Source: a virus (taxonomy: Duplodnaviria; Heunggongvirae; Uroviricota; Caudoviricetes). From it: a stretch of DNA of 64,000 bases. How positions within the stretch are numbered: the stretch's first letter is position 1; each line of letters opens with the position of its first letter. The notes beneath the pieces are model-generated. The model was not told the DNA's origin, made no database searches, and saw nothing but the letters and a program-made list of their open reading frames with translations. The stretch lies in IMG/VR virus record IMGVR_UViG_2667527582_000007. The stretch is one strand, 5' to 3'. Of the stretch, positions 5,594 through 54,006 are shown piece by piece. The translations under genes and the position numbers were made by a program.

Positions 5594-5789
<196 letters not shown>

Positions 5790-7442: not shown

Positions 7443-7894
7443 AACTGCGTGTTACGTTCGCCCTGGACTGTTGCGATCGTGAAGCCATAGACTGGGCCGC
7501 AAGCACGGGAGGTTACGATAAAGCGACAGTGCAGGATGTCATGTTAGGAGCGATAGAAAAACGCTTTGGCGATAAAGTACCGGAACAGTCCATCCAGTGG
7601 CTGACAGATAACGGTTCAGCGTATAGAGCGCATGAAACATGGCAGTTCGCCAGAGAGTTGAATCTGGAGCCCTGCACAACGGCAATCAGCAGTCCTCAGA
7701 GTAATGGAATGGCAGAAAGGTTCGTGAAAACGATGAAGGAAGACTACATCGCGTTCATGCCGAAACCGAATGTAAGAACGGCATTGCATAATCTTGCAGT
7801 GGCGATCGATCATTACAATGAAAACCATCCGCACAGTGCGTTGGGTTATCGCTCTCCGCGAGAATATCGACGTCAGCGGGTAACGTTAACTTAA
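7443..7894 (+). mobile_element. IS2-like (IS3 family) transposase OrfB, C-terminal fragment
   Basis: [14 protein letters not shown]...[11 protein letters not shown]...[17 protein letters not shown]...[18 protein letters not shown] matches IS2 InsD (rve/DDE domain). Confidence 0.7.
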
Positions 7895-7935
7895 GATACA
7901 CCCCCTGTCTGGAAATAAGGGGGCAAGAACAATGA

Positions 7936-8688
7936 TCAGATTCCCTGGTGAGTAAGAATTTTACTTTCTGAACTCCTCTGAGAGTATTGACTTGGAGAAA
8001 CACCAAAATAACGTCTAAATACATAAGTAAAGTATGAGACACTGGCATAACCACAGACCTTAGCTACTTTACTAATAGGATAACAACGAGTGCTGAGTAA
8101 ATATTCAGCCATTTGCATCCTTTCATCAAGTATGATCTTACTGAATGATACCCCCTCTTCTTTCAATTTCCTCTTTAGTAAACTTTCGCTGAGATATAAT
8201 CTTGATGATATATCCTTAAGACGCCATGGTGCAGATAAATCCGTATGAATAATCGTTTTAACTTTAGCCTCTGTGCTTTTCAAACATTCAAACAGAAATA
8301 CTCCAAATTGTTTTTCAGAAGAAAATGCAGAGAGACATGTAAAAGCAATAGACTCATCAAAAATTTCTATGTATTCAGCACAGTGATTAGCCCAACTAAT
8401 TAATCCTTTAATTAAACTGAAGTCAGCAAAGTTTATTTTTAAATAAGATGGATATTCCCTACAATCAGAAATATCCCTTAAGTTATTAGCTTTCAAATAG
8501 CGACTAATAAACTCAGCGCCAAAATCCGCCACTATCACTCTTTCAGGATATGTCAGGAAAAAATCTCTAGAGCTAGAGTCGACAAGTACAGATGAACCTC
8601 TCTCCAGAAACACACTCTCTTTTCCGAAATAAACATCAAAGGACTCCAAAATCAATATAACTGAACATGTAGTTGCCATATCATCCAC
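7936..8688 (-). CDS. AraC/XylS-family transcriptional regulator
   Basis: 250-aa ORF with C-terminal HTH region ...KVAKVCGYASVSYFTYVFRRYFGVSPSQY; AT-rich island-like context; exact orthologue not recognised. Confidence 0.7.
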   Translation of the reverse strand: MDDMATTCSVILILESFDVYFGKESVFLERGSSVLVDSSSRDFFLTYPERVIVADFGAEFISRYLKANNLRDISDCREYPSYLKINFADFSLIKGLISWANHCAEYIEIFDESIAFTCLSAFSSEKQFGVFLFECLKSTEAKVKTIIHTDLSAPWRLKDISSRLYLSESLLKRKLKEEGVSFSKIILDERMQMAEYLLSTRCYPISKVAKVCGYASVSYFTYVFRRYFGVSPSQYSQRSSESKILTHQGI

Positions 8689-9263
8689 CCAACTTAACTG
8701 AAACCAGGATGAAGTATATGCATATAAAGTTCACTTTGCCAAACGTCAGTATAAAAAACCACATAAAAAATAGGGTGTGATAAAAAATACCGTAACAATA
8801 AAGCAAAGGATTATAAATTCCGTTACAGTTACAAATGATACTCAAGAAACAATTCCTTAGGAAAAACTTATTTACAGCCAATAAGTAAGACACTTATATG
8901 ATATCAAGTTTTCATAAAACATAACTAGGCTAAATAGCTGCGCCTAATACCGCTACACTTTTGCCAGCCCATGTTTGCCTCCGGGTATTGACCCCTTCTC
9001 TACGCAACTTCAGTTCCCACCACCAACTTTGCGGCAGCTTTGTAGGATCAATGTCTAAAAGAATAATGGTGACCGATAAGAAAACGACTGAATAACTGCA
9101 AATTTTCGCTCAAAACCTTCCTGTCAGATCCATAGCGAATCAAGTGCTGAATGTCACAGTATCGAACAGAAAACAGTGACGATCTAACCCTTCAAGAATA
9201 TTCTACGATTGTTCTGTTTAGGAAAAGCAAGGCGGGAAGTCGGGAGATAAGTCATTGATAAAG

Positions 9264-9325
9264 TGGCGGAGAGAGGGGGATTTGACCCCCCCGGTAGAGT
9301 TGCCCCTACTCCGGTTTTCGAGACC
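9264..9325 (-). other. partial copy of tRNA-Ser(CGA) 3' portion (att-core-like remnant)
   Basis: tggcggagagagggggatttgacccccccggtagagttgcccctactccggttttcgagacc matches the serU 3' ~60 nt with 2 mismatches, then homology ends. Confidence 0.6.
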
Positions 9326-9514
9326 GATGATACAGAGTCGAAAAATCAAAGAGTTAAAAATTTCTCTTGGAATAAATGTCTTAAAATTGTACACGAAAAA
9401 TCAATGAATTACATAACATTAAAGAAGAATATTCCAAGCCTTCTTGAGGCTACCACCTGTTTTCAGGTGTCATTCAGACGTGATTTGCCCCAGATTGGGA
9501 AAGCACGCTTTTTT

Positions 9515-9574
9515 GGTGATGCTGCCAACTTACTGATTTAGTGTATGATGGTGTTTTTGAGGTGCTCCAGTGGC
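9515..9574 (+). mobile_element. IS1 left terminal inverted repeat and 5' end
   Basis: ggtgatgctgccaacttactgatttagtgtatgatggtgtttttgaggtgctccagtggc. Confidence 0.85.
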
Positions 9575-13395: not shown

Positions 13396-13932
13396 TATAT
13401 TGAACGGGCGCGGCGGCAGGTTATCCACCACCACCGAGGCCAGATACTGCGAGGTGGTTTTGCCCTTAATGGTGATGTCTTTTTCCGTCACCCAGCCACC
13501 ATTACGCTGTATCTGAACCAGCAGGCGGACTTCCGACGGATTCCGGTCCCCCTTTGAGGTGGTTTCCACCAGTGCCTGTACACCGAAGGTAAAGCGCAGA
13601 CGGTCGATGTTTGCAGACGTAATGGCCCGGGTGATCGGCGTGTCATATTTCACTTCCGTACCCAGCACCGTCTCGGAGCCGGAGGATTCAAATCCCTCCG
13701 GCGGTGACTGCTCCTGCTCACCGGTCCGGAACACCACCGTGACGCCGGATATATTGGTATTCCCCTCACTGTCCAGCACCGGCGTACTGTTCAGCAGCAC
13801 GCTTTTTAATCCGTCCACCGGACCTTCAACCGGCCCTTCGCTGATGGCATCGATCACACTCAGCAGCTGCGTGGACTTCAGGTTGTCCTTCGCTTCGCGC
13901 GGGGTATGCCCCTTACTGCTGCCTTTACCCAT
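13396..13932 (-). CDS. J: J protein N-terminal fragment
   Basis: MGKGSSKGHTPREAKDNLKSTQLLSVIDAISEGPVEGPVDGLKSVLLNSTPVLDSEGNTNISGVTVVFRTGEQEQSPPEGFESSGSETVLGTEVKYDTPITRAITSANIDRLRF... Confidence 0.85.
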
Positions 13933-13950
13933 TCCTCACGNNNNNNNNNN

Positions 13951-14552
13951 TGTCAGCTCAATCCGAGACGGCGCTGCCGGTGCGGCAATCCGGAACGATA
14001 CCGATGCCGGATCGCCCTGCTGTCCCCACGCATTTACCGCCCGGACAGTCAGCCTGTAGTTCCCCAGCGCCAGCTGCGTGAAGCGGTATGTGGTTTCCGT
14101 CGTCCGGGCCGTGCTGACCAGCCGCTCACTGCCATCGTCCGCTGCCACGGTCAGGCGAAGCAGGAAGCTCACCCCCTTCACCACCTTCGGCGTGTCCCAG
14201 CGCGCCAGCACCTGATATTCCCCGCTGTCTGCGGTGACTTCGACAGTCAGGTGCTGCACCGCGGGCGGCGTGACGCCATTCACCGTGCCGCTCAAGTCGC
14301 CGTCAAAGTGCGCCCCGTTATCCACGATGGCTTCTTTTTCGGGTACATGCTGCACGGCGGTGATGGCATACGTGCCGTCGTCGTTCTCACGGATACTCAC
14401 GCAGCGGAACAGGCGCTGGCGCAACGTCGGCAACTTCAGCCCCCACACGCTGTACTCGGCAACGCCGTCAGGAACACGGCTCACTTTTACCTTCACGCCG
14501 TCGGTGACGGACTGGACCTCCACGCTGACCGGATTGCCACTTCCGTCAACCA
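13951..14552 (-). CDS. J: J protein central fragment
   Basis: [63 protein letters not shown]... Confidence 0.8.
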
Positions 14553-14562
14553 NNNNNNNNNN

Positions 14563-14939
14563 TCCCTCCAGCGTGTTTTATCTCTGCGAACATAATGCCT
14601 GCGTCATCCGCCAGCAGGAGCTGGACTTCACTGATGCCCGTTATATCTGCGAAAAGACCGGGATCTGGACCCGTGATGGCATTCTCTGGTTTTCGTCATC
14701 CGGTGAAGAGATTGAACCGCCTGACAGCGTGACCTTTCACATCTGGACGGCGTACAGCCCGTTCACCACCTGGGTGCAGATTGTCAAAGACTGGATGAAG
14801 ACGAAAGGGGATACGGGAAAACGTAAAACCTTCGTGAACACCACGCTCGGTGAGACGTGGGAAGCGAAAATCGGCGAACGTCCGGATGCTGAAGTGATGG
14901 CAGAGCGGAAAGAGCATTATTCAGCGCCCGTTCCTGACC
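14563..14939 (+). CDS. A: terminase large subunit A, internal fragment
   Basis: PSSVFYLCEHNACVIRQQELDFTDARYICEKTGIWTRDGILWFSSSGEEIEPPDSVTFHIWTAY...AEVMAERKEHYSAPVPD. Confidence 0.8.
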
Positions 14940-14949
14940 NNNNNNNNNN

Positions 14950-15944
14950 TCTGACCGGCAAACTTATCCGCAGCGAGGATGAGGGGCTGGTCACCCACTG
15001 GCACTATGACGAAGCAGACCGCCTCACGCACCGCACCGTGAATGGCGAAACCGCAGAGCGGTGGCGGTATGACGAACGCGGCTGGCTGACAGACACCAGC
15101 CATATCAGCGAAGGGCACCGGGTGGCGGTGTATTACGGATATGATGAGAAAGGCCGGCTGACCGGTGAGCGTCAGACGGTGCATCATCCGCAGACGAATG
15201 AACTGCTCTGGCAGCATGAGACCAGACATGCGTACAACGCACAGGGACTGGCGAACCGCTGTATACCGGACAGCCTGCCCGCCGTGGAATGGCTGACCTA
15301 CGGCAGCGGCTGGCTGGCAGGCATGAAGCTCGGCGACACACCGCTGGTGGATTTCACCCGCGACCGCCTGCACCGGGAAACGCTGCGCAGCTTCGGTCGT
15401 TATGAACTCACCACCGCTTACACCCCTGCCGGGCAGTTACAGCGTCAGCACCTGAACAGCCTGCAGTATGACCGCGATTACACCTGGAACGACAACGGCG
15501 AACTCATCCGCATCAGCAGCCCGCGCCAGACCCGGAGTTACAGCTACAGCACCACCGGCAGGCTGACCGGCGTTCACACCACCGCAGCGAATCTGGATAT
15601 CCGCATCCCGTATGCCACGGACCCGGCGGGCAACCGCCTGCCCGACCCGGAGCTGCACCCGGACAGCACCCTCAGCATGTGGCCGGATAACCGTATCGCC
15701 CGTGACGCGCACTATCTTTACCGGTATGACCGTCACGGCAGGCTGACGGAGAAAACCGACCTCATCCCGGAAGGGGTTATCCGCACGGATGATGAGCGCA
15801 CCCACCGGTACCATTACGACAGTCAGCACCGGCTGGTGCACTACACGCGGACACAATATGCAGAGCCGCTGGTCGAAAGCCGCTATCTTTACGACCCGCT
15901 GGGCCGCAGGGTGGCAAAACGGGTATGGCGACGTGAACGGGACC
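14950..15944 (+). CDS. rhs: Rhs core (YD-repeat) fragment
   Basis: [48 protein letters not shown]...[20 protein letters not shown]; YD repeats. Confidence 0.85.
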
Positions 15945-15954
15945 NNNNNNNNNN

Positions 15955-16184
15955 CGACCAGAGCGGAACGGTAAACGGTGTCACGCCGCCAGCGGTGCAG
16001 CACCTGACCGCAGAAGTCACCGCAGACAGCGGGGAATACCAGGTGCTGGCGCGCTGGGACACGCCGAAGGTGGTGAAGGGCGTGAGTTTCCTGCTTCGCC
16101 TGACCGTGGCAGCGGATGACGGCAGTGAGCGGCTGGTCAGCACGGCCCGGACGACGGAAACCACATACCGCTTCACGCAGCTGG
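15955..16184 (+). CDS. J: J protein fragment
   Basis: [76 protein letters not shown]. Confidence 0.75.
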
Positions 16185-16194
16185 NNNNNNNNNN

Positions 16195-16366
16195 ACCCGG
16201 AACTCTTCCCGCTCAAGCGCGGCCATATGCAGTCGCAGCCATTCACGTACGGCGTGGGTAGAGGTGAAGGCTACGCCGGGCTCATGCAGGTGGCGGTCCA
16301 GAGCCCTGAGCGCCCGCTGAATGAGACGCCGGTCCTGTGGCGTCATCTCGCCGGGTAAAAAGGAAA
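16195..16366 (-). CDS. RadC-like protein, N-terminal fragment
   Basis: MTPQDRRLIQRALRALDRHLHEPGVAFTSTHAVREWLRLHMAALEREEFR. Confidence 0.7.
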
Positions 16367-16376
16367 NNNNNNNNNN

Positions 16377-16548
16377 CCTGGGTAGCCGAAACTCCACTTC
16401 AGTTCTGGCATAAACTCAAAGTTCATCCCGTAGCTGGAGGCAACCAGCGTTGGCGGCAGGAACACGACGGATACCACCGAGAAAATTTTGATGATGCGGT
16501 TCTGCTCGATGTTGATAAAACCCATTGCCGCCTGCATCAGGAAGTTCA
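16377..16548 (-). CDS. corA: CorA-like C-terminal fragment (second, nucleotide-divergent copy)
   Basis: Encodes ...[52 protein letters not shown], identical in protein to 40961-41131 but ~7% different in nucleotides. Confidence 0.7.
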
Positions 16549-16591
16549 NNNNNNNNNNCAGTCATCTTACTTTTTTTGATATCGCCTCGTT

Positions 16592-16678
16592 TGGTGCGAG
16601 GGGGGGGACTTGAACCCCCACGTCCGTAAGAACACTAACACCTGAAGCTAGCGCGTCTACCAATTCCGCCACCTTCGC
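16592..16678 (-). tRNA. tRNA-Leu (CAG)
   Basis: Reverse complement GCGAAGGTGGCGGAATTGGTAGACGCGCTAGCTTCAGGTGTTAGTGT...GGGGGTTCAAGTCCCCCCCCTCGCACCA, 87 nt. Confidence 0.9.
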
Positions 16679-16707
16679 CCAGTGCGAGCAATATCAACGT
16701 GGTTTTT

Positions 16708-16768
16708 GGTGCGAGGGGGGGGACTTGAACCCCCACGTCCGTAAGGACACTAACACCTGAAGCTAGCG
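16708..16768 (-). tRNA. tRNA-Leu (CAG), second tandem copy, truncated by gap
   Basis: Same sequence as 16592-16678 up to the gap. Confidence 0.8.
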
Positions 16769-16778
16769 CNNNNNNNNN

Positions 16779-17183
16779 NTGCAGATTTTTGTGACGCTGC
16801 AGCATTCGTTTCTGACGTTTTCGCCGCACCGGCACTGGTAGCCGCCGCGCTTTTTGAGGACTCTGCAGCGGCAGCACTTTTTGATGCTTCAGTAGCCTTT
16901 GTTGATGCCGTTCCTGCGCTGGAAGACGCTGACTGAGCCGACGTCGCGGCCTGCCCGGCTGATGTGCTGGCTGCACGTGCTGAGCCTGCAGCATCAGTCG
17001 CATGGGTTGCCGCCTCACGGGCTGATGTGCCGGCATCACTGGCTGACTTCTTCGCGGCTGCCGTGTTCTGTGCCACTGCGGACGCGTTACGCGCCACCTC
17101 TTCCACCATCAGTTCAAAACGGCGCAGTGCCTCCGGACGGGCATCATCCTCCGTCATGGCACCGAGAAAATCATTCAGCGTAC
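16779..17183 (-). CDS. stf: side tail fiber Stf, N-terminal-region fragment
   Basis: TLNDFLGAMTEDDARPEALRRFELMVEEVARNASAVAQNTAAAKKSASDAG... Confidence 0.75.
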
Positions 17184-17193
17184 NNNNNNNNNN

Positions 17194-17261
17194 ACCCCCG
17201 GTAGAGTTGCCCCTACTCCGGTTTTCGAGACCGGTCCGTTCAGCCGCTCCGGCATCTCTCC
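17194..17261 (-). tRNA. serU: tRNA-Ser (CGA), 3' end lost in gap
   Basis: Reverse complement ...GGAGAGATGCCGGAGCGGCTGAACGGACCGGTCTCGAAAACCGGAGTAGGGGCAACTCTACCGGGGGT. Confidence 0.85.
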
Positions 17262-17354
17262 GTTCAGATGGTTGCCATGATGCCAGGAAATTTGGCATTT
17301 TAACAGTCCCTGTCCGTGCAATTTTGTTCAAGTGACGAGTTTGCGAGCAAAACG

Positions 17355-18152
17355 ATGATTAAGTGGCCCTGGAAAGTACAAGAATCAGCACATCAAACTG
17401 CCCTTCCCTGGCAGGAAGCACTATCGATCCCCCTTTTAACGTGTCTGACGGAACAGGAACAAAGCAAATTAGTCACTCTTGCCGAACGTTTTTTACAGCA
17501 AAAGCGGCTTGTTCCTTTACAGGGCTTTGAACTGGATTCATTAAGAAGCTGCCGGATAGCACTTCTATTTTGCCTACCCGTTCTGGAGTTAGGACTGGAA
17601 TGGCTGGATGGTTTTCATGAAGTCTTAATTTATCCTGCGCCATTTGTGGTCGATGATGAATGGGAAGACGATATCGGTCTGGTGCATAACCAACGTATTG
17701 TTCAGTCAGGTCAGAGCTGGCAGCAAGGGCCTATCGTTTTGAACTGGTTGGATATACAAGATTCTTTTGATGCTTCTGGTTTTAACCTGATTATTCATGA
17801 AGTCGCTCATAAGCTGGACACCCGTAACGGCGATCGCGCCAGCGGAGTTCCCTTTATTCCGTTGCGTGAGGTTGCTGGCTGGGAACACGATCTTCATGCT
17901 GCAATGAACAACATTCAGGAAGAAATCGAATTGGTTGGCGAGAATGCGGCGAGCATTGATGCTTATGCAGCCAGCGATCCTGCTGAATGTTTTGCCGTAC
18001 TTTCTGAATATTTCTTTAGCGCCCCAGAACTTTTTGCTCCTCGTTTCCCTTCATTGTGGCAACGTTTCTGCCAATTTTATCAACAAGATCCTTTGCAGAG
18101 ACTGCATCACGCTAATGATACAGACTCGTTTTCGGCGACGAATGTTCATTAA
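17355..18152 (+). CDS. mtfA: MtfA (Mlc titration factor A)
   Basis: [61 protein letters not shown]...; full length. Confidence 0.9.
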
Positions 18153-18252
18153 TTAACAACTTTGCAGATTAATTAACCAATTGAAATGACTTATGAAATT
18201 TAGTGTTGACAGACAAGGTACCGCTAAGTAATATTCGCCCCGTTCACACGAT

Positions 18253-18328
18253 TCCTCTGTAGTTCAGTCGGTAGAACGGCGGACTGTTAATCCGTATGTC
18301 ACTGGTTCGAGTCCAGTCAGAGGAGCCA
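18253..18328 (+). tRNA. tRNA-Asn (GUU)
   Basis: TCCTCTGTAGTTCAGTCGGTAGAACGGCGGACTGTTAATCCGTATGTCACTGGTTCGAGTCCAGTCAGAGGAGCCA. Confidence 0.95.
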
Positions 18329-18334
18329 AATTCC

Positions 18335-18362
18335 TGAAAAGCCCGCTTTTATAGCGGGATTT
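18335..18362 (+). terminator. rho-independent terminator after tRNA-Asn
   Basis: aaaagcccgcttttatagcgggatttttgc. Confidence 0.5.
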
Positions 18363-18365
18363 TTG

Positions 18366-19316
18366 CTATATCTGATAATCAATTTCCTCTTCACTGCTTT
18401 CCATCACCTGCCGCTTGATATCCTCAACTGACAGTCCTGCATTACAAAGTTCCAGAAAGCGCCAGACATAGTTACGCTGAAGTTGTCCTCGCTTCAGTCC
18501 CAACCAGACAGTATTAGCATCAAAAAGATGCCGCGTATCCAGGCGGATTAAATTCTCTTCCTCTTGTTCGCCACTGGATTGCTCGGCAACTAATCCGATC
18601 CCAAGCCCAAGAGCAACATAGGTTTTAATGACATCAGAATCCTGCGCACTTAATACAATATCTGCCAGCAAACCTTTGCGGGCAAATGCGTCATCAATAC
18701 GTGAGCGCCCCGTAATCCCCTGTCGGTAAGTGATTAACGGCCACTTCGCTATTGATTCCAGCGTCAATGGTGAAATTTGCGTCAAGGGATGATCGTGTGG
18801 AACAAGCAAACTATGGTGCCAACGAAACCACGGGAAGGCGACGAGCTGCGGGTCATTACTCAAACGCTCGCTGGCGATACCAATATCAGCTTCGCCATTT
18901 TGCAACAATGTCGCAATTTCCTGTGGCGTCCCCTGGATTAGCTCGAGCCGAACCTCCGGGAAAAGTTCGCGAAAAGCTTTAATGACCTCTGGCAAGCTAT
19001 AACGTGCCTGAGTATGCGTCGTTGCAATAGTGAGAACGCCAGACGTATCGTTGGTAAACAGGTCTGCAAGCCGACGAACATTACTGGCTTCATTCAGAAT
19101 ACGTTCTGCAATGACCAGTAATGCTTTGCCCGGTTCAGTCATGCCCAGCAGTCGCTTACCTCGTCGAACAAATATTTCGATGCCAAGTTCATCCTCCAGT
19201 TCCCGAATATGACGGCTGACGCCTGACTGTGAGGTAAAAAGCATATTCGCAACCTCTGTCAGGTTGTAATCCTGACGTGCAGCCTCGCGGATTATCTTTA
19301 GTTGTTGGAAATTCAC
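18366..19316 (-). CDS. cbl: LysR-type regulator Cbl
   Basis: MNFQQLKIIREAARQDYNLTEVANMLFTSQSGVSRHIRELEDELGIEIFVRRGKRLLGMTEPG... 316 aa. Confidence 0.9.
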   Translation of the reverse strand: MNFQQLKIIREAARQDYNLTEVANMLFTSQSGVSRHIRELEDELGIEIFVRRGKRLLGMTEPGKALLVIAERILNEASNVRRLADLFTNDTSGVLTIATTHTQARYSLPEVIKAFRELFPEVRLELIQGTPQEIATLLQNGEADIGIASERLSNDPQLVAFPWFRWHHSLLVPHDHPLTQISPLTLESIAKWPLITYRQGITGRSRIDDAFARKGLLADIVLSAQDSDVIKTYVALGLGIGLVAEQSSGEQEEENLIRLDTRHLFDANTVWLGLKRGQLQRNYVWRFLELCNAGLSVEDIKRQVMESSEEEIDYQI

Positions 19317-19417
19317 GGTAAACTCCGGGCAGTTCAGATTTCCCGTTATTGTTAAAGTCTAATGCCCGGCATAACAAATAATAAAAACCCGCATCTTATT
19401 CCATCCCGATATAACAC

Positions 19418-20335
19418 TTAGCTCACCAATTGCCACTGCCTTTTTTCCATCACTGGAGAACTAATCACTGACATTAACAACTCTTTCACTGCCTGTGCCT
19501 GTGGCGATAAGTTCGCTCTGGCGGGTAAATTTAATGACAAAGAGAGACTCATGGAAGGAGTGGTAATGCGTGACATCCACCCATTTACTGCGCCACATAA
19601 CGAACGCGCGGCCGATTCGGGTAATACTGCAACGCCCATGCCGCTGGCAATCGCTGCGGTAAGCGTGGCAATAGACTCAATTTCACCAATAACTTTTGCC
19701 GTGAGTCGCCGTAGGGAAAAAGCCTCATCAACACGAAGTCTAATAGCACTGTAATCACTGGGGAGAAAGAGGTTCATTTGCGCAATAGCATTCACATTAA
19801 CGCTTTGCCCCGGGCAATCTTGAGTTCCTACCAGAAAAAGATCTTCTTTCAGCAAAGCCTGACTGGATACACCAGCCACAGGGGAATGCTCATAAATCAC
19901 CGCCATATCGAGTTGGTGATTTATCAATTTTTCGTTAAGCACTGCACCACTATTTTCATGAAGATAGATAACGATCTCCGGAAATTCAGCGCGAACCGCC
20001 TGTAATAAGGGCATGGTGATGGATGACGCAGCGGTTCCTGGTGCAAAGCCAATCGAGACTTGCCCCGATAATGCCTGACCAACGTTATGCACCGCCAGTT
20101 GGGCCTGTTCACACTGACGTAAAATGGCCCGCGCATGGGTATAGAGAATTTTTCCGGCGTCTGTTGGTGTAACGCCCCGCTTTGTACGGATCAAAAGTTG
20201 TTGATTTAACTCACCTTCCAGTGTGGCAACCTGCTGGCTGAGCGCTGGTTGTGCGATATGCAATACTTCAGCAGCCTGGGTCAGGCTACCAATATCTACA
20301 ATTTTTACGAAGTATTTCAGGCGTCTGAAGTTCAT
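19418..20335 (-). CDS. nac: LysR-type nitrogen assimilation control protein Nac
   Basis: MNFRRLKYFVKIVDIGSLTQAAEVLHIAQPALSQQVATLEGELNQQLLIRTKRGVTPTDAGKILY... 305 aa. Confidence 0.9.
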   Translation of the reverse strand: MNFRRLKYFVKIVDIGSLTQAAEVLHIAQPALSQQVATLEGELNQQLLIRTKRGVTPTDAGKILYTHARAILRQCEQAQLAVHNVGQALSGQVSIGFAPGTAASSITMPLLQAVRAEFPEIVIYLHENSGAVLNEKLINHQLDMAVIYEHSPVAGVSSQALLKEDLFLVGTQDCPGQSVNVNAIAQMNLFLPSDYSAIRLRVDEAFSLRRLTAKVIGEIESIATLTAAIASGMGVAVLPESAARSLCGAVNGWMSRITTPSMSLSLSLNLPARANLSPQAQAVKELLMSVISSPVMEKRQWQLVS

Positions 20336-20661
20336 GTTGCCTCCGGTTTTTAAGAATCGGCCCAAGTGCCGCCATTACTTACAACCAGATTGCAAGATGC
20401 TTGCCAGTTTTATTTTGGTGTTGATGTACAAGCTAACCAACTGTCAAATAAGAGATTATGATAGATTCGTCATTTGCTCCTTTAATCAGCTGTCGCGTTC
20501 CCCTGCCCTATAAAAGGAGGGTATGCACCACGATGGTTCATTACCCAATAAGATTGAAAGCTCACCACTTTGTTGAAATTGACAGCAAACAAACAAAAAA
20601 ATGCATTTCACCCTTTGACATCACCATGCACTGCCATTAATATGCGCCCCGTTCACACGAT

Positions 20662-20708
20662 TCCTCTGTAGTTCAGTCGGTAGAACGGCGGACTGTTAAT
20701 CCGTATGT
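20662..20708 (+). tRNA. tRNA-Asn (GUU), truncated by gap
   Basis: tcctctgtagttcagtcggtagaacggcggactgttaatccgtatgt. Confidence 0.85.
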
Positions 20709-20718
20709 NNNNNNNNNN

Positions 20719-38275: not shown

Positions 38276-38803
38276 ACCGCCGGACTGCGTGATGTTGTTC
38301 GCCACACTGCGGCCCATATCCACTTCAACCGGCTCGAAGGCTTCACCGGTCATGGTGTATTTGCCCTTAAGCACGGCAGAAACTGCCTGCATCTCTTCGA
38401 CCTGAGCAATGGCCAGCTCTTCGTCTCGCATGTTCTGCAGGATGATGCGACGGCGGCGGTAAGCCGGGTCCGCCAGATTCTGTGGATCTTCATCCGGCAG
38501 GCGACGCAGGGTCATCTGCGGATTCACCTCATGCTTGGGCTTGACATATCCCGGTGTAAATTCAGAGGTGGATCCGCCACGGGAACGGATAACCTCACCG
38601 GAAACAATCGGCGAAACGTACAGCGCCATGTTTACCAGTCCCGGAATTTGTGAGAGATAGACTTTCTCCGTAGTGAAGGGATAGCTCTCACGGAAAAAGA
38701 GACGCAGAAACAGCGGATCAAACTTAAATTTCTGCTCATTTGCCGCCAGCAGCTGGGCGGTTGTGTACATCGACATAAAAAAATCCCGTAAAAAAAGCCG
38801 CAC
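38276..38803 (-). CDS. E: major capsid protein E, N-terminal part
   Basis: MSMYTTAQLLAANEQKFKFDPLFLRLFFRESYPFTTEKVYLSQIPGLVNMALYVSPIVSGEVIRSRGGSTSEFTPGYVKPKHEV... Confidence 0.85.
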
Positions 38804-38831
38804 AGGCGGCCTTTAGTGATGAAGGGTAAAG

Positions 38832-39164
38832 TTAAACGATGCTGATTGCCGTTCCGGCAAACGCGGTCCGTTTTTTCGTCTCGTCGCTGGCAGCCTCCGG
38901 CCAGAGCACATCCTCATAACGGAACGTGCCGGACTTGTAGAACGTCAGCGTGGTGCTGGTCTGGTCAGCAGCAACCGCAAGAATGCCAACGGCAGCACCG
39001 TCGGTGGTGCCATCCCACGCAACCAGCTTACGGGTGGAGGTGTCCAGCATCAGCGGGGTCATTGCAGGCGCTTTCGCACTCAATCCGCCGGGCGCGGTTG
39101 CGGTATGAGCCGGGTCACTATTGCCCAGCGGCTGGTAATGGGTAAAGGTTTCTTTGCTCGTCAT
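38832..39164 (-). CDS. D: head decoration protein D (110 aa)
   Basis: [110 protein letters not shown]. Confidence 0.85.
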
Positions 39165-39194
39165 AAACATCCCTTACACTGGTGNNNNNNNNNN

Positions 39195-53783: not shown

Positions 53784-53926
53784 NNNNNNNNNNCGCTAAG
53801 GTGGAAGCGGTAGTAAAACGTGAAGGATAACGTTGCATCAGCAACGGCCCGAAGGGCGAGACGAAGTCGAGTCATCCTGCACGACCCACCACTAACATAG
53901 TTAGTTGTAGTATCCAGCGTAGTATT

Positions 53927-54002
53927 GGGTGATTAGCTCAGCTGGGAGAGCACCTCCCTTACAAGGAGGGGGTCGGCGGTTCGATCCCGTCATCACCCAC
54001 CA
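53927..54002 (+). tRNA. tRNA-Val (UAC)
   Basis: GGGTGATTAGCTCAGCTGGGAGAGCACCTCCCTTACAAGGAGGGGGTCGGCGGTTCGATCCCGTCATCACCCACCA. Confidence 0.95.
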
Positions 54003-54006
54003 CTTC

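Follow-up and report, generated by a model that had tools for sequence, protein, structure and literature searches.

A gap-free join of mtfA to cbl and nac across a tRNA-Asn gene is very probably an assembly chimera at repeated asn loci of Escherichia coli

The join of mtfA to cbl and nac through one tRNA-Asn gene, found in a gap-free contig of a fragmented draft assembly, is in our view very probably a chimeric path through a de Bruijn graph and not a structure of the chromosome. The order in the real genome is most likely the canonical one, i.e. mtfA, asnT, yeeJ to yeeN, asnW, yeeO, asnU, cbl, nac, asnV, ldtA, and, judging from its sibling assemblies, the isolate would still carry the genes from yeeJ to yeeO. 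The stretch analysed here (the window, 64,000 nucleotides) is made up of 97 contigs with spacers of 10 N between them, and it is identical (100%, N runs included) to JRSG01000018.1 of assembly GCA_001413685.1. The order and orientation of the contigs are arbitrary, as seen by mapping them onto an Stx2k phage genome. A first impression that the contigs are collinear was rejected, since the search tool joins nearby pieces and the mapping to the Stx2k phage is random. The contig in question (positions 17194-20708) is flanked by fragments of phage portal and tail genes at the place where ldtA should come after nac and asnV.

The contig is 3,515 bp long and contains no N. It carries a partial serU, mtfA, tRNA-Asn, cbl, nac and a partial tRNA-Asn, in this order; the contiguity reported in the first-pass annotation, with the K-12 block missing between mtfA and cbl, is thus confirmed. 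Its features are the following:

17194-17261, minus strand: the 5' 68 nt of the 90-nt tRNA-Ser gene serU, identical to K-12 serU (L001 3645-3712) and cut by the contig start.
17355-18152, plus strand: mtfA (Mlc/DgsA anti-repressor), intact, 265 aa, protein identical to K-12 MtfA.
18206-18234, plus strand: asnT-type sigma-70 promoter (TTGACA, 17 nt, TAATAT), found by promoter scan in a flank that is identical to the K-12 asnT upstream region.
18248-18333, plus strand: 86-nt stretch common to asnT and asnU, inside which the flanks switch (mismatch walk on the asnT and asnU registers; the four asn loci of K-12 aligned).
18253-18328, plus strand: complete tRNA-Asn(GTT), a hybrid with asnT upstream and asnU downstream context (ARAGORN; Rfam tRNA, 72.6 bits; alignment).
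18342-18358, plus strand: asnU-type intrinsic terminator hairpin (terminator scan), identical to the K-12 asnU downstream region.
18366-19316, minus strand: cbl (LysR-type regulator), intact, 316 aa, protein identical to K-12 Cbl.
19418-20335, minus strand: nac (nitrogen assimilation control), intact, 305 aa, rare D180N allele, one substitution relative to K-12.
20645-20708, plus strand: asnV leader (17 nt) and the first 47 nt of a tRNA-Asn, with an asnV-type upstream flank; Rfam reports a 3'-truncated tRNA at 20662-20708.

When aligned to K-12 (L001), the contig falls into two registers. Positions 17194-18333 match the asnT region at 100% identity, and positions 18248-20708 match the asnU region with one mismatch, which is the substitution leading to Nac D180N and the only SNP of the contig (the DNA is 99.97% K-12-like). 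As the two registers overlap at 18248-18333, the switch from the asnT flank to the asnU flank lies inside this identical stretch. The order in K-12 is serU, mtfA, asnT, yeeJ, yeeL', shiA, amn, yeeN, asnW, yeeO, asnU, cbl, nac, asnV, ldtA. The content of the block, given in the first-pass annotation as yeeJ to yeeO with asnW, was correct; the starts of asnT and asnU are 15,302 bp apart in L001, against the roughly 18 kb stated there. The block was not found in the 64-kb window, and this is uninformative since the window is only a small part of the assembly.

A repeat copy with the upstream flank of asnT and the downstream flank of asnU is predicted both by a chimeric assembly and by a real deletion. 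In the latter case, RecA-dependent recombination between the direct repeats asnT and asnU would have removed 15.3 kb with yeeJ, yeeL', shiA, amn, yeeN, asnW and yeeO, leaving one functional hybrid tRNA-Asn gene that takes its promoter from asnT and its terminator from asnU. The hybrid is built exactly as such an event would have it: the crossover falls inside the identical stretch, promoter and terminator are retained, the contig is gap-free, and asn copies are known to recombine in nature. To our knowledge, none of the genes that would be lost is essential. We nevertheless regard the deletion as very unlikely. The junction is absent from finished genomes: in none of the 5,426 complete E. coli genomes does any place cover 80% or more of the 3,515-bp contig, or of a 381-bp query centred on the junction. 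Ten places with the exact MtfA protein were read; what comes after asnT is yeeJ or an integrase island in all ten and cbl in none. A scan of metagenome contigs gave no match to the hybrid junction, and the positive control (any asnT-upstream context) likewise gave no match, so that this negative carries no weight.

Further evidence comes from sibling assemblies. Only 19 contigs on record encode the exact Nac D180N protein, and the nine places listed all belong to the NCBI assembly series GCA_0014129xx-0014138xx. The cbl-nac DNA of these siblings is 100% identical to that of the window. Their asn junctions differ from one another, all of them without N, and are arranged as follows:

asnT upstream and asnU downstream, cbl-nac joined to mtfA: L098 and L102.
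asnV upstream and asnT downstream, continuing into yeeJ: L099 and L105.
asnV upstream and asnW downstream, continuing into yeeN-amn-shiA: L100, L101 and L102.
Canonical asnW, asnU and asnV, where cobUST-ldtA lies to one side and yeeO-yeeN-amn to the other: L103, a 20-kb contig.
Canonical at asnU and asnV, with a break in asnW: L104.
cbl-nac unjoined, on a 2,475-bp contig: L106 and 10 similar places (about eleven).

Besides the canonical pairing of the asn flanks, at least three non-canonical pairings thus occur, which exclude one another. The asnT/asnU junction is not reproducible among the siblings, two of which (L103 and L104) have canonical junctions, and it is missing from all 5,426 finished genomes. 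Moreover, siblings that share the rare nac allele carry the genes supposed to be deleted, and in L102 the same hybrid tRNA occurs together with shiA-amn-yeeN on a single contig. These points, along with the lysine tRNA operon of the window, which is mis-threaded as well, argue against a deletion. The first-pass annotation had offered a recombinational deletion and a collapse of identical tRNAs by the assembler as two possibilities. The evidence favours the collapse, while the deletion does not agree with the finished genomes, with the incompatible joins of the siblings or with the block genes found in them. Wherever a sibling has ShiA, Amn, YeeN or YeeO, the protein does not differ from that of K-12. 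A rare allele in the missing block was sought as a marker with which to trace the block in the source assembly, and these four proteins, being the same as in K-12, provide none.

Some of the sibling joins could also be viewed as products of a real reshuffling of asn-flanked modules, in which a yeeJ-to-yeeO circle was excised and re-entered at asnV. This would give the order mtfA, asn, cbl, nac, asn, yeeJ and onward, which is native in Citrobacter and related genera; indeed, many species of Enterobacteriaceae natively have cbl and nac directly after mtfA, and the asnT-upstream/asnU-downstream joins of L098 and L102 fit one permutation with the asnV-upstream/asnT-downstream joins of L099 and L105. 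However, this permutation is at odds with the asnV-upstream/asnW-downstream joins in L100, L101 and L102 and with the canonical L103 and L104, so the siblings contradict each other despite their identical sequence. Two recombination events would be needed, and the resulting junction is again found in 0 of the 5,426 complete E. coli genomes. We consider such a reshuffling extremely unlikely. In Citrobacter, Leclercia and Lelliottia the local order (mtfA, asn, cbl, nac, asn, shiA, amn and onward) is the same as in the contig, but there it is native and the proteins are only about 80-85% identical, whereas the contig DNA is 99.97% K-12-like and E. coli does not have that order. Taking both events together, we leave only a slim chance that the isolate, and perhaps also the L102 sibling, is a true asnT/asnU recombinant, whether by a 15.3-kb deletion or by reshuffling into the Citrobacter order.

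The chimeric path favoured here can be outlined from the repeat lengths and the contig ends. At asnV, valZ, leu, glnW and glnV/X, and in some 20 further contigs of the window, the right contig end lies exactly 64 nt past the start of an exact repeat. In the contig under study, the end at position 20708 falls exactly 64 nt into an exact repeat of 18236-18299. These ends suggest a de Bruijn assembler with k=65. The exact sequence common to asnT, asnW, asnU and asnV is 85-97 nt long, and the 86-nt stretch at 18248-18333 also exceeds this k-mer. Since the shared sequence is longer than k, the four copies would collapse into one node of the graph with four entries and four exits. A path could then come in from the mtfA (asnT) side, leave on the cbl (asnU) side, run on through cbl and nac, and halt on re-entering the same node from the asnV side. 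Stopping at a visited node, at a visited edge or at merging branches was in each case compared with the contigs, and none of the three accounts both for the tRNA-Gln and tRNA-Asn contigs, where the repeat is passed once before the stop, and for the tRNA-Lys contig with its three passes. As a counterpoint, the join at mtfA is seamless while the assembler halts at asnV, valZ, leu and gln, and support from reads or read pairs is conceivable.

The tRNA-Lys contig (53794-54528) serves as an internal control. It runs through three identical tRNA-Lys copies with an order of spacers that is unlike that of K-12 and of strain 2011C-3911, and it has no match in one collinear piece among the complete genomes. 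It is useful to compare these features with those of repeat-induced chimeric contigs in short-read de Bruijn assemblies. There, as here, the breakpoint falls within an exact repeat that exceeds k in length, the sequence on either side is otherwise identical to the reference, the junction is absent from finished genomes, siblings disagree and other tRNA arrays are mis-threaded. We see no substantive difference between the two, with the remark that the assembler and its traversal rule are in our case deduced from the contig ends (k=65, spacers of 10 N).

The asn cluster of E. coli (asnT, asnW, asnU, asnV) is a hot spot of islands and rearrangements, with the HPI at asnT and pks at asnW (PMC8209727). 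For the four genes, insertions and an inversion of the 4.3-kb asnW-asnU-asnV segment, the latter in pks-positive B2 strains, have been described, and no asnT-asnU deletion (PMC8209727). The earlier statement that the asn tRNA genes are sites of island integration and recombination is correct. The asnW-asnU-asnV inversion and an inverted yeeO in strain CRECJHTL34 are instances of natural recombination between asn copies, which can be held up against an explanation by assembly. A real event in our isolate would use the same locus and the same repeated tRNA genes. The known events are, however, insertions mediated by integrases or inversions that recur in finished genomes, while no finished genome has the asnT/asnU fusion and the siblings do not agree on it.

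The role of these genes as integration sites also raises the site-specific excision of an integrated island, as known for HPI, pks and ICEs, with restoration of a bare tRNA gene. One public genome (L012) does have an integrase directly after asnT. This explanation is already contradicted by the anatomy of the contig, and we rate its probability as next to negligible. The K-12 block is core-like (amn, shiA, yeeN, yeeO) and varies in place and direction at this locus from one related genus to another, no integrase or island remnant is present in the contig, and the flanks come from different tRNA copies that share the whole tRNA and its leader rather than a short att repeat at the 3' end.

Returning to the chimeric join, we would like to point out that a gap-free contig across a repeated tRNA gene in a fragmented short-read draft is no evidence of adjacency, and that calls of deletions or of island presence and absence at tRNA hot spots can be false when made from such drafts. 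If the deletion were true after all, the strain would have lost one tRNA-Asn copy and some non-essential genes, a modest and strain-specific event. The deletion would also be the first E. coli case of a deletion between asn tRNA copies, unsurprising in its mechanism but relevant to students of tRNA hot-spot rearrangement. Either a deletion or a reshuffling would represent a natural rearrangement through a tRNA repeat of about 90 nt that is absent from finished E. coli genomes.

A few minor observations concern the other end of the contig. The partial serU at 17194-17261 is cut off at the contig start and was for this reason called neither by ARAGORN nor by Rfam. A diverged duplicate of the serU 3' end is located at about 9262-9326 of the window, and the contig begins with the first base at which the two copies differ. 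The duplicate lies on the contig at 7443-9574 and accounts for the break at serU. The idea that this second contig marks an island at serU was rejected, as in complete genomes the contig maps elsewhere, beside an AraC regulator and an integrase remnant.

The contig at 17194-20708 is 3,515 bp long and contains no N, hence the gap-free serU-mtfA-tRNA-Asn-cbl-nac-tRNA-Asn run reported by the first-pass annotation stands.

Features of contig 17194-20708
From 17194, minus strand: 5' 68 nt of serU, truncated by the contig start
17355-18152, plus strand: mtfA, protein identical to K-12 MtfA
18253-18328: complete tRNA-Asn(GTT)
18366-19316, minus strand: cbl, protein identical to K-12 Cbl
19418-20335, minus strand: nac, protein identical to K-12 Nac except for D180N
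20662-20708: first 47 nt of a second tRNA-Asn, truncated by the contig end

Codon 180 of nac (window 19798) is the sole difference from K-12 across the 3.5 kb. The contig starts within serU because a diverged duplicate of about the last 60 nt of this gene, with its yodB-side flank, is present at 9262-9326 in contig 7443-9574. Beyond it lie unrelated low-GC DNA, an AraC-type regulator, an integrase remnant and, at the end, IS1; the duplicate looks like an att-type scar.

In the annotated K-12 locus (L001) the order is serU, mtfA, asnT, yeeJ, yeeL pseudogene, shiA, amn, yeeN, asnW, yeeO, asnU, cbl, nac, asnV, ldtA, and 15,302 bp separate the start of asnT from that of asnU. The block named at first between the asn genes is thus essentially correct, but its length is about 15 kb, not 18 kb. 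Alignment of the window with all four K-12 asn loci identifies the complete tRNA-Asn as a hybrid, with an asnT-type flank upstream, including a TTGACA/TAATAT promoter, and an asnU-type flank downstream, including a terminator hairpin. In the asnT register 17194-18333 is 100% identical to K-12 and in the asnU register 18248-20708 has one mismatch, therefore the flanks switch within 18248-18333, an 86-nt stretch where the asnT and asnU copies are identical. A real asnT x asnU deletion would be viable and would yield exactly this hybrid, and recombination between asn copies is known: the asnW-asnU-asnV segment is inverted in pks-positive B2 strains (PMC8209727), and in the finished chromosome of strain CRECJHTL34 (NZ_CM192843.1, 18201-20100) yeeO is inverted with respect to K-12, between oppositely oriented asnW and asnU, apparently a genuine inversion between copies of the asn tRNA. 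Even so, we regard such a deletion as very improbable, and the mtfA-tRNA-Asn-cbl junction as almost certainly an assembly artefact.

A real deletion is at odds, firstly, with its zero frequency among finished E. coli genomes. When the whole contig was compared by Megablast with 5,426 complete genomes, none had a single place where at least 80% of the query was covered, and both contig halves were matched in all of them; a shorter query of 381 bp with the tRNA at its centre was likewise found in 0 of the 5,426. Around the exact MtfA protein in public assemblies, cbl followed asnT in none of the 10 places examined, the position being taken by yeeJ or an integrase island in every case; in three of these loci (L003, L009 and L011) a lambdoid prophage adjoins serU. 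Metagenome pattern scans for the junction were empty, as was their positive control, hence they carry no weight.

Secondly, some sibling assemblies have canonical junctions. Nac D180N is a rare protein: only 19 contigs on record encode it, and the nine places listed all belong to one NCBI assembly series (GCA_0014129xx to GCA_0014138xx; WGS prefixes JRRI to JRSN), for which D180N is a handy lineage marker; we found no publication on the project. Window 13418-24000 recurs at 100% identity, even in its N runs, in JRSG01000018.1 (GCA_001413685.1), which is therefore the source record. The cbl-nac module is 100% identical to that of the window in all siblings. Each tRNA-Asn of these loci was typed by its flanks, and every type of join proved seamless.

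tRNA-Asn flanks in the loci carrying Nac D180N
L098 (source record) and L102: asnT-upstream with asnU-downstream, the hybrid in question
L099 and L105: asnV-upstream with asnT-downstream, into yeeJ
L100, L101 and L102: asnV-upstream with asnW-downstream, into yeeN-amn-shiA
L103 (20-kb contig): canonical asnW, asnU and asnV; cobUST-ldtA flanks one side, and yeeO followed by yeeN-amn the other
L104: canonical asnU and asnV, flanked likewise by cobUST-ldtA and by yeeO; an N run interrupts asnW
L106 and 10 similar places: cbl-nac by itself on a contig of 2,475 bp, with asn at its bounds

Several mutually incompatible layouts despite an identical locus sequence are what random pairing at a collapsed repeat would give; biology would not give them. 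The ShiA, Amn, YeeN and YeeO proteins of the siblings are identical to those of K-12, therefore the lineage possesses the block "missing" from the contig, and yeeJ to yeeO is presumably present in the window isolate as well. In L102 the asnT/asnU hybrid and shiA-amn-yeeN lie together on one N-free stretch, an arrangement incompatible with a simple deletion in that assembly.

The window is not continuous sequence but is made up of 97 short contigs, 57 to 3,751 bp in length; the gaps between them are runs of 10 N in 95 cases and a run of 269 N in one. At five tRNA loci (asnV, valZ, a leu tRNA, glnW and glnV/X) the right contig end lies exactly 64 nt inside an exact repeat; self-comparison revealed some 20 more ends whose last 64 nt recur within another contig, and left ends mostly begin directly past a repeat. 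Such a pattern is characteristic of a de Bruijn graph, by our reckoning with k=65. The exact asn repeat is 85-97 nt, depending on the pair of copies compared; being longer than k, all asn copies would collapse into one node, whose entries and exits may then be paired at random, generating hybrid junctions. Nothing can be read from contig order within the window: the phage-related contigs align with a reference Stx2k phage at scattered positions and in both orientations, and the contig in question has lambdoid tail and portal fragments as neighbours, where ldtA is expected after nac-asnV.

An internal control is provided by the other tRNA operons. Contigs ending at a tRNA repeat (leu, and two of the metT operon) follow K-12 collinearly, with 99.5-100% identity. 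The lysT-operon contig 53794-54528, however, runs through three identical 76-nt tRNA-Lys copies, and its spacers (lysZ-lysQ, lysY-lysZ, then the one before valZ) come in the opposite order to those of K-12 and strain 2011C-3911. Even the best-ranked complete genomes align with this contig solely as four separate pieces, and no one-piece collinear match was found among the complete genomes matched, therefore the assembly threads identical tRNA genes in arrangements unlike known genomes. A tRNA-Lys here directly abuts the second half of the lysW-valZ spacer, the first half intervening in K-12, 2011C-3911 and the complete genomes listed; the Val-Lys connector is a 4-nt CTTC, matching neither of the two in 2011C-3911 (CC and CTC). 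The contig probably reflects graph mis-threading together with natural gain and loss of RtT-like spacer elements.

The absence from 5,426 finished genomes, the canonical siblings, the contradictory hybrids from this one pipeline and the wrongly threaded lysine operon jointly make it far more likely that the adjacency is not a real genomic feature. Of the two explanations initially offered, the running together of identical tRNAs by the assembler is borne out, and a recombinational deletion between asn copies is not. The same four observations speak against a real permutation of asn-flanked modules, which we consider slightly less probable still than the deletion, even though the order mtfA, asn, cbl, nac is native to Citrobacter, Leclercia, Lelliottia and other genera, where it equals that of the contig. 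It follows that the order of the asn-flanked modules has changed in the course of evolution. Excision of an island has a negligible probability.

Among species representatives (L019-L093), many Enterobacteriaceae (e.g. L042, L023, L070, L029 and L046) have cbl and nac directly after mtfA, the gap leaving room for a single tRNA, and shiA, amn, yeeO and ldtA sit further downstream. E. coli has a permuted order of modules. A third layout occurs in E. ruysiae and E. whittamii, where the mtfA segment is inverted with respect to the remainder.

Two 196-nt contigs (5594-5789 and 56902-57097), in which no tRNA was called, each contain a repeat with a 101-nt period, the second copy of which is cut by the contig end after exactly 64 nt; like the tRNA-Asn and tRNA-Gln contigs, they pass the first copy and stop in the second. 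Contigs 25291-27498 and 38276-39184 overlap end to end by 147 nt in reverse complement, differing only in the middle 19 nt between identical 64-nt arms: an unpopped variant bubble, one branch absorbed by each long flank, which further illustrates the assembler's handling of branches. Most window contigs are pieces of head, tail and lysis genes from lambdoid prophages; comparison of the window with the Stx2k phage revealed nothing matching stx genes. Several diverged variants of these prophage regions, at 88-99% identity, occur together, which suggests that the strain carries several related prophages.
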